From sequence record OZ346151.1: DNA of 64,000 bases; one strand, given 5' to 3'. A program made the position numbers and the translations under genes. Below are positions 1 to 62,897 of this stretch, piece after piece (within the stretch, counting starts at the first letter, position 1; every line of letters begins with the position of its first letter). The DNA is from a phage. The notes below the pieces were generated by a model that saw only the letters and a program-made list of their open reading frames with translations, was not told the DNA's origin and did no database searches.

Positions 1-1397
1 TGAGTGCTTTAGAGTTCAAAGCCCCACCTAAGCGAGCATTTACCTCTACAGGAGATGTCAGTAAGATGGGGATAAAATGGTGTGAAGAGATGGGCTGCAA
101 AGACCACGATAAGATGGCTGATTTCTTGAGAGGTTATATTAAGGGCACCTCCACACCACAACCTTTACCTAAAGAGCTGATGGATCAGGCAATAAGCGAT
201 CTGCAACAGAAGCGAATGCCTGACTGCAAGATACCTATGAAAATCAGCAATCAGGACGACATTAAGCGATACCTGATCAGTGCTGGTTGGCTTCCGACAA
301 TGTGGAGAACTAAGGATGTAACTAAGGACAGCAAGAAGAAAGCTCTACCTGATGCAGATGTTGATGCACGAGTATATGCATACATGGACGAGCTTTTAGA
401 GTCAGAGTATTGTGACCTAATTATCAACTTCTGGAACAAAACTGATGCTAAGTTTCAGACAACAGTGCACAAGTTCCGAAGCTTTCCTAACTCCGAAAGG
501 ATTAAAAAGGAAGTGTTCGGGAAAATACGCAGAAAAGCCAGGGCACTTATTACTTCTCCGCAACTGAAAGATACGTTTGGACACCTATGTCCGAATCTTG
601 AAAAATTGAACGGAGAGATGGCTAAAGATATCGTCTTGTGGTTATCATTGCGAAACCGCAGATCGGTCCTTGATCCAATCAAGGAGGATAAGGTTGATAC
701 TGGTCTTCTTAATCACCCACGTTTGAAGATTGACCATAAGCTTCCTGCTAAAAGCTCTGGATTAACAAACACTTCCCGACAGAAACACAGTATTTGTGCA
801 AACATGCCTAAACCATCTCCTAAAGTGGTTATGGGTAAAGAGATGCGTAGCTTGTGGGGTGTTCCTCCTGGATACTTTGAGATCGGTATTGACGGGTCCA
901 ACTTAGAGCAGCTTATCGGGGCTTGGGGTGCCTTTGAGTTCGACAACGGCTTGTACTATGATGTTGTAAGTAACGGGGACGCACACCAAAACAATGCTGA
1001 GGCATATACAAAAGTAGCAGGCAGAGAGGTGTCTCGTAACGACGGTAAACCTATCACGTATGGGGTTATGTACGGGGCACAAAAAGATAAAGTTGCAGAT
1101 ATGCTGGATATCTCCCCAGAGTTGGGGCAAAGGGTGATCGATGCACTTTGGGATGCCAACCCAGGTCTTAAGGGGCGCAAAGAGGATCTGGAGAAATTCT
1201 GGGAAGCAACAGGTAAGAAGTTTATCTACTCTTTTGATGGTCATGCTATCTGGACCCGATCTAAACACTCTTTACTTAATGCATACCAACAAAATGGCGG
1301 CGCATCGTTGTGTGACTTAGTTGGGATACTCATGCACCATCAAATGGTGAAGCGTGGGTGGTACGATGAAGGTGTTCGTCGTATTATCTATTACCAT
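1..1397 (+). CDS. DNA polymerase, family A (Pol I/T7-like), exon 1; 5' end lies outside window
   Basis: Frame 3 is open from window start. Motif A-like GIDGSNLEQL and motif B KPITYGVMYGAQ present. ORF track 66..1403 ends ...IIYYHK-stop exactly where motif C HDE is expected. Confidence 0.85.
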
Positions 1398-2239
1398 AAA
1401 TAACATTGTGGCTTCGTGCAGTGATGCACGTCGAAAACCTCTTTAATTGACGGGAAGGCTAAGTTGACTTTTACACCTAAACATGGTAAAAGCTCAATAT
1501 GCTAATCCGCAGCGAAGACTAAAGGGGTGTAGTTAAAATGGCTAGATCAGTTGAGTATCACGGATATACCGTGTTTGATGATGGAACAATACCTTTATCG
1601 AAACGTGATCATACAACAATGTTTTGTTTTGATAATGGTCGAGGTTACCTTTGCGTAACCATGTTCATCGAGGGGAAGCAGTGCACAAAAGGTGTCCACC
1701 ACTTGGTTGCTGAATGCTTTGTATCAAACCCTGATCCTGAAAGGCTCACATGGGTGAACCATAAGGACGGAAACAAATACAACAATGCATACTGGAACCT
1801 TGAATGGACCACCCCTGGTGGAAATATCAAACACGCTTATGATAATGACCTCAGAGTAAGGCCAGTCGGTGAGTATAATGCCAACGCTGTACTGACCGAG
1901 GATGAGGTAACGGAGATTTGCGAACTGTTACAAAGTGGTTTACGACAATGCGAGATTAGGGATCTTGGGTATCCTTATGAGACGGTCAGAGCCATAAAGC
2001 AAAGAAGACAGTGGAAACATATCTCTAAAAACTACACCTGGTAGTAACGTTCAGAGACTATCGAAAGCATAGCGCCAACATAAATTGGTGCGAAGAAGCG
2101 AGTAGAGTAGACCAGCAAGTGCGGTCGAAATGGGAGGTGCCTTGGTAACAAGGTAGTGAGATAGTCCGATCCATACAGGAAACTGTATGGCTGTGCACGT
2201 AATGGTGCGGGGTAGCTTAACGACCTACCTGAACTATTG
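1398..2239 (+). mobile_element. Group I self-splicing intron inserted in DNA polymerase motif C
   Basis: Conserved core elements in canonical order: P AATTGACGGGAAGG (1445-1458), Q AATCCGCAGC (1504-1513), R GTTCAGAGACTA (2049-2060), S GAGATAGTCC (2158-2167). Exon 1 ends with U (1397), intron ends with G (2239). Joining 1397 to 2240 restores ...YYH-DEYQL... in frame. Confidence 0.8.
1538..2044 (+). CDS. HNH homing endonuclease (intron-encoded, between Q and R elements)
   Basis: 168 aa; HNH motifs VHHLVAECFV ... VNHKDGNKYNN ... NLEW; ATG at 1538 inside intron. Confidence 0.85.
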   Translation: MARSVEYHGYTVFDDGTIPLSKRDHTTMFCFDNGRGYLCVTMFIEGKQCTKGVHHLVAECFVSNPDPERLTWVNHKDGNKYNNAYWNLEWTTPGGNIKHAYDNDLRVRPVGEYNANAVLTEDEVTEICELLQSGLRQCEIRDLGYPYETVRAIKQRRQWKHISKNYTW

Positions 2240-2593
2240 GATGAGTACCAACTTCAAGTCCCTGACACACCGAAGTATAAGACTGTGTACACCTTCGACA
2301 CAATCGAAGAACTGGAAGCATTTAAGGCAGAGCAGGAGGCCAAACTTCATGTGTTCGACGGTCATAAGTACAAAAAGGCACGCAAGGATGAGGACGGAAA
2401 CGAAGTGGTTGACAGAGACGGAAACACGGTGTACGATCCTATCCTGAACGATGACGGAAAGCTTGAACTTATCTGGAGCCCTGTGGGTGAAATGGTGGTG
2501 CATTGCTTCTGGCAAGCTTCTAAAATGATGGGCGTCCCGTTCCAGATCACGGGTGAATACCTGTGTGGTCGTAATTGGGGTGATTGTCACTAA
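2240..2593 (+). CDS. DNA polymerase family A, exon 2 (C-terminal 117 aa)
   Basis: Begins GAT GAG (DE) completing motif C; ends ...GVPFQITGEYLCGRNWGDCH, resembling Pol I (VPLLVEVGSGENWDQAH) and T7 pol (GPNWAICH) C-termini. ORF-track 2237..2593 begins 3 nt upstream at a TTG. Confidence 0.8.
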   Translation, partial: DEYQLQVPDTPKYKTVYTFDTIEELEAFKAEQEAKLHVFDGHKYKKARKDEDGNEVVDRDGNTVYDPILNDDGKLELIWSPVGEMVVHCFWQASKMMGVPFQITGEYLCGRNWGDCH

Positions 2594-2642
2594 TGTAAAC
2601 TATCAACACATGGAAGTGTTGTTGAGCAAAGAGGAGACTTTT

Positions 2643-2927
2643 ATGGTAGTAGAACCAACAAAAACATTTACATCCATGACTATCCCTGTTATTATGCAGG
2701 TGGAGTGTGTTCAGGTATCTCAAGTGTGGCCTGGCACCAAAATCCCGACAGGGCCTGATTTCTTTCAGGTTGGCAAAGTGTACAATGTCTGGAAGGCACC
2801 AGATTGTTACCCTTTCATCAAAGATGACCGTGGGATGCTGTGGTATCTTGGAAATGATTTGACACTGCACCTTGGGAATGCTATTATTGCAGTATTCAGA
2901 CTTAACAAGAAGGAGACTGATCAATGA
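2643..2927 (+). CDS. hypothetical protein
   Basis: ORF track 2553..2927; start refined to ATG 2643 preceded by GAGGAG. Confidence 0.45.
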   Translation: MVVEPTKTFTSMTIPVIMQVECVQVSQVWPGTKIPTGPDFFQVGKVYNVWKAPDCYPFIKDDRGMLWYLGNDLTLHLGNAIIAVFRLNKKETDQ

Positions 2928-3151
2928 CGACTTTGGTTAAAGCTACCTTTGTAGAAGAAAAGATGACAGACCTGTCATTCTTTAAAGAAGGAAAGACCTA
3001 CGAGGTTTATTACGATAAAGCTCGTGCAAATAAAATGATTAAAGACGAGGAAGGGGTTGCCTGGTTTATCTCCCATCTGGCAAACGGTGAGTATCATATC
3101 TACGGAACCACCCTGCTTGCCAAGTTTGTAGCTGTTGAAGAGGACCTATGA
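2924..3151 (+). CDS. hypothetical protein
   Basis: 75 aa ORF, start overlaps upstream stop (ATGA). Confidence 0.45.
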   Translation: MTTLVKATFVEEKMTDLSFFKEGKTYEVYYDKARANKMIKDEEGVAWFISHLANGEYHIYGTTLLAKFVAVEEDL

Positions 3152-62809: not shown

Positions 62810-62820
62810 AATAGTAAATA

Positions 62821-62897
62821 CTCCGCGTAGCTCAGCTTGGTAGAGCGCCTGATTTGGGATCAGGAGGTCGAGTGTTCGAATCACTCCGTGGAGACCA
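62821..62897 (+). tRNA. tRNA-Pro (anticodon TGG), CCA encoded
   Basis: Acceptor CTCCGCG/CGTGGAG (C1:G72 as in Pro tRNAs), anticodon loop TTTGGGA, T-loop TTCGAAT. Confidence 0.85.

Follow-up and report, generated by a model that had tools for sequence, protein, structure and literature searches.

A Split DNA Polymerase Gene at the Left End of the Window

We analyzed a 64,000-nucleotide (nt) stretch of phage DNA (sequence record OZ346151.1), referred to below as the window, in which a DNA polymerase gene close to the left end is interrupted by 842 nt of other sequence. Positions 1–3000 match more than 100 genomes of rV5-like coliphages (Vequintavirus) at 93%–98% identity, with the BASEL phages HeinrichReichert, WalterGehring, and AlexBoehm as the top matches. 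The interruption separates the histidine and aspartate codons of catalytic motif C and, in our judgment almost certainly, represents a mobile group I intron (subgroup IA2) lodged in the essential family A polymerase gene of an rV5-like coliphage. The locus contains the following features, given with the evidence for each where this is not discussed below (ORF, open reading frame):

1–1397, plus strand: exon 1 of the family A DNA polymerase gene (ORF list, Pfam DNA_pol_A, T7 alignment); its 5′ part lies off the window's left end
1398–2239, plus strand: group I intron, IA2, 842 nt; starts AAATAA (in-frame stop at 1401–1403) and ends with G2239
1538–2044, plus strand: I-HmuI-like HNH homing endonuclease gene, 168 amino acids plus stop, between core elements Q and R in the P6a loop
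2240–2593, plus strand: exon 2 of the DNA polymerase gene; starts GAT GAG (motif C Asp and Glu) and ends with GRNWGDCH and a stop

The upstream ORF ends with IIYYHK: CAT, the His codon of motif C, occupies 1395–1397 and is followed by AAA (1398–1400) and TAA (1401–1403). The first-pass annotation, made from the sequence alone, had put the stop two codons after IIYYH, which is loosely right, as a single sense codon intervenes. The open frame resumes 842 nt downstream, as that annotation stated, with GAT GAG TAC CAA (DEYQ, continuing DEYQL) from 2240, and closes with GRNWGDCH and a stop at 2593. Exon 1 is colinear with the unbroken 2778-nt polymerase coding sequence (CDS) of phage nomo, and the joined-exon protein is encoded by a single uninterrupted 1683-nt stretch in dozens of Vequintaviruses, at 99.8%–100% identity.

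By homology, the interruption lies in a gene for a T7-like DNA polymerase of family A. The joined exons, predicted earlier to belong to this family, match T7 DNA polymerase with E = 1.6e-13; the Pfam DNA_pol_A score is 33.9 bits against a cut-off of 34.3, the window carrying part of the gene only. The H-D-E triad regenerated at the junction, another expectation of the first-pass annotation, aligns on T7 H653-D654-E655 (motif C). The exon 1 sequence GIDGSNLE aligns through D276 of the listed ORF (codon at 891–893) on T7 D475, the motif A aspartate. Since the motif A aspartate lies in exon 1 and the triad at the junction, the intron parts the two catalytic carboxylate motifs.

Both ends of the insertion were placed by comparison with the intron-less alleles of phages nomo, Pr121LW, Murica, TP4, TP14, and ECP32. 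The nomo gene reads TATTACCAT/GACGAATATCAG (here and below, a slash within a sequence marks a junction), and the window adds exactly 842 nt at this point; against all six alleles the boundary cannot be slid either way. Near-identical intron-less Vequintavirus alleles run uninterrupted through the site as TATTACCAT/GAYGAR. The last base of exon 1 is thus U (T1397) and the last base of the intron, its position fixed by the intron-less alleles, is G (G2239), in agreement with the exon-final U and intron-final G noted earlier.

RNA Fold and Subgroup of the Intervening Sequence

The structure of the intervening RNA was examined in a comparative set of 11 distinct variants that occupy the identical polymerase site in four genera. 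Five are from Vequintavirus (the window, FV3, Mangalyan, JEP1, and MaxTheCat); the others are Avunavirus Av-05 and its relative TH18, Seunavirus PVP-SE1 and GEC_vB_MG, Certrevirus CR9, and A5-4 (genus unassigned). ORFs were cut out before the cores were aligned, and the canonical P1–P9.2 were then written, with P7 pseudoknotted against P3. P5b and the distal P6a stem, in which the lineages are out of register, were for that reason excluded from the formal pair count and checked sequence by sequence instead. In the window, the elements of the fold are located as follows:

1394–1411, plus strand: P1 helix, CCAU/AA (1394–1399) with the internal guide UUGUGG (1406–1411); Rfam alignment
1415–1430, plus strand: P2 hairpin, CGUGCA with UGCACG; 6 of 6 pairs changed on both sides, 100% of cells paired
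1438–1514, plus strand: 5′ core (model and covariation), comprising P3 5′ strand (1438–1443), P4 (1448–1454 with 1506–1511, the P and Q elements), P5/P5a/P5b extension (1458–1502), and P6 5′ strand (1512–1514)
1518–1534, plus strand: P6a 5′ strand, ACUA...GGGUGUAGUU, paired with 2030–2045; duplex about −17 kcal/mol
2048–2167, plus strand: 3′ core, comprising P6 3′ strand (2048–2050), P7 5′ strand (R element, 2054–2060), P7.1 (2072–2091), GUA linker, P7.2 (2110–2126), P3 3′ strand (2132–2137), P8 (2138–2155), and P7 3′ strand (S element, 2162–2167)
2171–2239, plus strand: 3′ peripheral hairpins P9 (2171–2190), P9.1 (2194–2209), and P9.2 (2211–2229), then a tail to G2239

All four conserved core elements named in the first-pass annotation lie where it placed them and with the sequences it gave: P is AATTGACGGGAAGG (1445–1458), Q is AATCCGCAGC (1504–1513), R is GTTCAGAGACTA (2049–2060), and S is GAGATAGTCC (2158–2167). 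In P1, a U1397–G1408 wobble marks the 5′ splice site, and all six P1 pairs are invariant across the 11 variants. The segment CAUU (1404–1407) is complementary to GAUG at the start of exon 2 (2240–2243), which is present in 11 of 11 intron-bearing alleles; read from the sequence, the two may form a P10 helix.

Covariation supports this fold. Standard pairs fill 97.8% of 817 cells, compared with 33%–41% in controls whose 3′ partners were shifted by 1–3 columns, and 38 of 80 pairs are changed on both sides, compared with 3–8 in the same controls. Not one of 500 shuffles matched the observed pairing or covariation score. The consensus was drawn partly by eye from the same sequences, a mild bias in its favour; the margin over the controls is far larger. 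Compensatory changes occur in P2, P3, P7, P7.2, P8, P9, and P9.2; in the 5′ core they affect P3 (3 of 5 pairs), P4, and P5. The P3/P7 pseudoknot is 100% paired, as are P9 and P9.2, with both-side changes in 4 of 8 and 3 of 5 pairs, respectively.

A covariance-model search of 1398–2239 had been proposed as a check, and its outcome was mixed. The group I intron model RF00028 gives an end-to-end match over 1388–2189 under permissive filters (E = 2.7e-8 for the region and 1.8e-6 over the whole window), but at 39.1 bits this falls below the curated gathering score of 50 bits; at gathering thresholds, Rfam returned only tRNAs over the whole window and no intron match. The lowered score and the missing match are due to the ORF insertion, which splits the core. 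A 276-nt allele without the ORF, which rV5, LL12, and MaxTheCat carry at this site, scores 64.7 bits, above the gathering score. The identification of a group I intron is supported by the covariance model, by covariation, and by exact presence or absence relative to the intron-less alleles. The mark of subgroup IA2 is two additional helices, P7.1 and P7.2, that lie between P7 and the 3′ strand of P3 and are linked by G-U-A (PMC3428280). Both helices are found here, and the GTA directly 5′ of P7.2 is invariant in 11 of 11 sequences, which places the intron in IA2.

An I-HmuI-like Endonuclease Gene in the P6a Loop

The ORF at 1538–2044, correctly recognized earlier as an HNH gene between Q and R, matches the PHROG 59 "HNH endonuclease" family with E = 6.5e-38. 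Among solved structures, I-HmuI (1U3E) is the nearest, with E = 4.4e-6, and it shares the HNH residues: the window motif VNHKDGNKYNNAYWNLEW aligns with VDHKDGNKDNNLSTNLRW of I-HmuI. The ratio of non-synonymous to synonymous substitution rates (dN/dS) is 0.05–0.07 relative to FV3 and Mangalyan; in the comparison with FV3, 21.5 synonymous and 4.5 non-synonymous differences give 0.047. The ORF is also intact in Av-05, at 71% amino acid identity. Low dN/dS and the intact Av-05 copy point to a maintained gene, and on this evidence we regard the ORF as an I-HmuI-like HNH endonuclease under purifying selection. Such selection is evidence of a functional protein, not of specific nicking. A single-sequence AlphaFold model of the protein was unusable (mean predicted local distance difference test score, 35).

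The gene is tied into the ribozyme through P6a. A GGGG run resembling a Shine-Dalgarno sequence lies in the P6a 5′ strand, 10–14 nt 5′ of the ATG at 1538, and the P6a 3′ strand is built from the last codons of the ORF (2030–2044). In Av-05, A5-4, GEC_vB_MG, and CR9, the start codon is likewise enclosed by a corresponding stem, and these stems show compensatory changes. Because the Shine-Dalgarno-like region would be paired with the 3′ end of the ORF, translation of the endonuclease should be restrained; the paired ribosome-binding region probably keeps it low.

Allelic States at the Insertion Site

Among Vequintavirus records with at least 90% polymerase identity, three states occur at one exact site: intron-less, ORF-less (276 or 328 nt), and the 842-nt HNH form. 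Rough counts over about 119 records are about 55, 30, and 30, respectively. The position is polymorphic for both presence and content of the intron.

In Seunavirus PVP-SE1 (1501–2419 of its extracted locus), the same scaffold at the same site has a short hairpin for P6a and carries a LAGLIDADG ORF instead, placed 3′ of R in the P7.1 region. With LAGLIDADG in the P7.1 region of one variant and HNH in P6a of others, endonuclease genes must have entered this intron more than once. The series formed by the intron-less state, the 276/328-nt ORF-less state, the HNH form, and the Seunavirus LAGLIDADG form may provide material for studying the turnover of homing elements.

All intron-bearing alleles have an exon 2 that begins with GATGA. 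The intron-less alleles sampled fall into two haplotypes: four of the six (nomo, TP4, TP14, and ECP32) begin exon 2 with GACGAATATCAG (GAC GAA TAT CAG), and the remaining two (Pr121LW and Murica) with GATGAGTACCAA (GAT GAG TAC CAA), like the intron-bearing alleles. Four silent changes within the opening 12 nt of exon 2 (window 2240–2251) distinguish the two haplotypes. We considered whether these differences are fixed between alleles with and without the intron and rejected the idea, as Pr121LW and Murica lack the intron and carry GATGAGTACCAA. Co-conversion, P10 constraints, or target-site resistance may underlie the pattern.

Other interruptions of the same gene were seen in relatives. Mangalyan (polymerase residues 672–994) and also JEP1 have a 323-amino-acid in-frame insertion with intein hallmarks in exon 1, running from CYSGD to VCGN; at +1, Cys replaces Gln. 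It is absent from the window, where the equivalent position is at about nt 988/989, after NGDAH. HNH-bearing interruptions further upstream occur in Av-05 (437–1152), GEC_vB_MG (upstream of 471), and CB7 (1907–2619), in coordinates of the extracted loci; exon 1 of the window is continuous there.

Relation to Known Introns and to Existing Annotation

The element is already known: the same intron is annotated in public records, and splicing of an orthologue is experimentally supported. AlexBoehm (MZ501048) has an intron that is 100% identical over 842 nt at the identical site, and its record gives the polymerase CDS as a join of two pieces flanking a "putative homing endonuclease." The FV3 intron (JQ031132) is 95.7% identical and occupies the identical site. 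Of the phages with the ORF-less form at this site, rV5 (NC_011041), LL12, and MaxTheCat, the last likewise has its polymerase CDS deposited as a join. The BASEL authors determined intron boundaries via comparative genomics (PMC8594841). In contrast to these joins, neither the rV5 RefSeq record nor the rV5 genome paper mentions a polymerase intron; gp223 and gp220 are kept separate, and only terminase introns are discussed. Small "hypothetical protein" ORFs, gp222 and gp221, lie inside or overlap the 276-nt intron of rV5 (1501–2130 of the extracted locus); both are probably annotation artefacts.

An experimental precedent is the second polymerase intron of Pectobacterium phage CB7 (Certrevirus), which carries the HNH gene CB7_50. 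It occupies the same site (TATTACCAT/AAGTAACATTGTGGC at the 5′ end and AAACTTTTG/GATGAATACCAG at the 3′ end) and shares the guide sequence and 3′ hairpins of the window intron. Its splicing in vivo was demonstrated by reverse transcription PCR (RT-PCR) and Sanger sequencing (PMC7344957). CB7 differs in genus and host; its intron is shorter (687 nt), as is the HNH ORF, and an additional upstream polymerase intron has no counterpart in the window.

Motif C is reported to have been invaded in other phages, too. Position 881 of E. coli Pol I is the His of H881-D882-E883. According to a secondary report (PMC3428280), two T7-like coliphages, ΦI and W31 (Bonocora and Shub 2004; HNH endonuclease I-TslI), carry IA2 introns at Pol I site 881 of the family A polymerase gene, with an HNH ORF in P6a, so the motif C site has been reported already. 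Unlike the window phage, an rV5-like myovirus, ΦI and W31 are podoviruses, and the site match, taken from that secondary report, is at the level of the residue. A blastn search with the intron had no T7-like phage among the matches listed (60 of 118 records).

The phage polymerase introns of the I-HmuI type are likewise group I (IA2), lie in family A polymerase genes, and encode nicking HNH endonucleases; PHROG 59 is the commonest family in Bacillus-phage polymerase introns (PMC11878797). These introns are inserted elsewhere, at Pol I position 674 in the fingers and not in motif C (PMC3428280), and the protein similarity of their endonucleases to the window ORF is confined to residues 12–100. 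The T4 td and nrdB introns are also IA2, with P7.1/P7.2 and an endonuclease ORF looped out of P6; they differ in interrupting other host genes and in carrying a GIY-YIG endonuclease (I-TevI), HNH being found only in RB3 nrdB (I-TevIII).

Group I introns with HNH genes have been known from phage family A polymerases since SPO1, so the window copy adds little biologically. Its practical value lies in annotation. For rV5-like phages, the polymerase is split into at least two CDSs, and spurious intron ORFs are added, in many GenBank and RefSeq records, the rV5 reference included; the boundaries 1397/1398 and 2239/2240 permit a correct CDS join.

Proposed Splicing and Homing

From the sequence and from its relatives, we infer the following course for self-splicing in this phage and for homing. 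In the pre-mRNA, the intron would fold into the P1–P9.2 ribozyme, and an external guanosine would attack the phosphodiester after U1397, held in P1 through the U1397–G1408 wobble. The CAUU guide segment (1404–1407) could then pair with GAUG (2240–2243) to form P10, and the free 3′ OH of U1397 would attack after G2239, so that CAU is joined to GAU and the sequence IIYYH-DEYQL is restored. On an unspliced message, translation would halt at the TAA at 1401–1403, two codons into the intron; the product, having the motif A aspartate and lacking the Asp-Glu of motif C, would for that reason be inactive.

During mixed infection, the HNH enzyme is expected, by analogy with I-HmuI, I-BasI, and I-PfoP3I, to introduce nicks close to the insertion site in polymerase alleles that lack the intron. 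Recombinational repair would then copy the intron into them (homing).

Alternative Explanations

Several observations weigh against the view that the window carries an active, mobile group I intron. The Rfam score of the window copy, with its 510-nt ORF insertion in the P6 loop, is under the curated 50 bits, and the Pfam HNH_3 match to the ORF is weak (17.7 bits versus a cut-off of 24.8). A scan of 1200–2700 revealed no sigma-70-like promoter from the 5′ splice site up to the start of the ORF; it returned 4 promoter-like sites where 3.2 are expected and no terminator, and is uninformative on expression of the endonuclease. An intron-like layout is, moreover, no guarantee of splicing, as an HNH-bearing insertion in CB7, CB7_245, did not splice and was retained at the RNA level (PMC7344957). 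One could accordingly suppose that the window holds a decayed or non-splicing element and that the polymerase is made as two polypeptides that assemble post-translationally, a mechanism reported for Aeh1 NrdA, which mobE splits, and also proposed for a CB7 gene; the two separate polymerase CDSs given at this locus in numerous GenBank records would fit such an arrangement. We consider this highly improbable. A dead element is not expected to have a ribozyme core preserved by compensatory changes in four genera, or 276-nt ORF-less copies that are intact. Exon 2 lacks a Shine-Dalgarno sequence as well as an ATG or GTG start, its sole candidate start being the TTG at 2237, preceded by CCTGAACTA, and a split into two polypeptides would fall within the H-D-E triad. 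Finally, splicing does occur in the CB7 orthologue, which occupies this site (PMC7344957). Removal at the protein level, as an intein, or a free-standing homing endonuclease gene between two genes has next to no probability, even though an intein-like in-frame insertion occurs elsewhere in the same gene of Mangalyan and JEP1. Both readings are refuted by the sequence itself: in-frame stops begin at 1401; the HNH ORF starts and stops independently, in another frame; the non-coding flanks adopt a group I core fold; and the two exons each encode half of a single domain.

A spliced group I intron thus remains the preferred reading, and a further question is what its endonuclease is selected for. 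The HNH enzyme may be favored mainly for damaging the polymerase gene of co-infecting intron-less relatives, that is, for interference competition or marker exclusion, although we hold this to be rather less probable than not. It would accord with the strong purifying selection on the ORF (dN/dS about 0.05), with the many intron-less (about 55) and ORF-less (about 30) alleles among the roughly 119 Vequintavirus records, and with the two silent-site haplotypes of intron-less alleles right at the insertion site; such a role has been shown for the ΦPA3 intron endonuclease and for I-HmuI/II in SPO1 and SP82, and there is a published precedent (PMC11620839). The haplotype pattern can, however, also be explained by co-conversion or plain polymorphism, and interference, itself conjectural as to function, does not exclude homing, since the two could operate together. 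As a tentative extension, which we would not favor at present, the cluster of four silent changes could mark an endonuclease-resistant target allele. If so, rV5-like phages would be engaged in intron-mediated interference competition over the polymerase, and the independent HNH and LAGLIDADG invasions, together with the ORF-less and intron-less states, would form a natural series of the whole gain-loss cycle.

A Second Intron and a tRNA Cluster in the Window

A second mobile group I intron, of 797 nt, splits nrdD (anaerobic ribonucleotide reductase) on the minus strand, with the following arrangement:

39184–38324, minus strand: nrdD, first exon
38323–37527, minus strand: group I intron
37526–36264, minus strand: nrdD, second exon

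The junctions in the window read GTCAACGGT/TAACAAACTGGCCGTTG and GGAGACAG/CAGACTCC, and the intron-less gene of JohannBauhin reads AACGGGCAGACT. P1 is a perfect 7-bp helix (CAACGGU with GCCGUUG) that places a U-G pair at the splice site; G is the last intron base. Its HNH ORF (38099–37566) matches PHROG 59 with E = 1.5e-26 and Pfam HNH_3 with 29.3 bits; the 3′ half of the ORF overlaps the ribozyme core, to which RF00028 gives 27.8 bits over 37823–37536. The intron is missing in most relatives, and HeinrichReichert has an ORF-less version that is annotated as a join.

A tRNA cluster lies at 62085–62894 on the plus strand, with six Rfam tRNA matches at the gathering score, and is typical of rV5-like phages. 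Weaker matches resembling tRNA-Sec, obtained at E-value thresholds, are located at 62164–62246, overlapping a tRNA match, and at 62365–62451.

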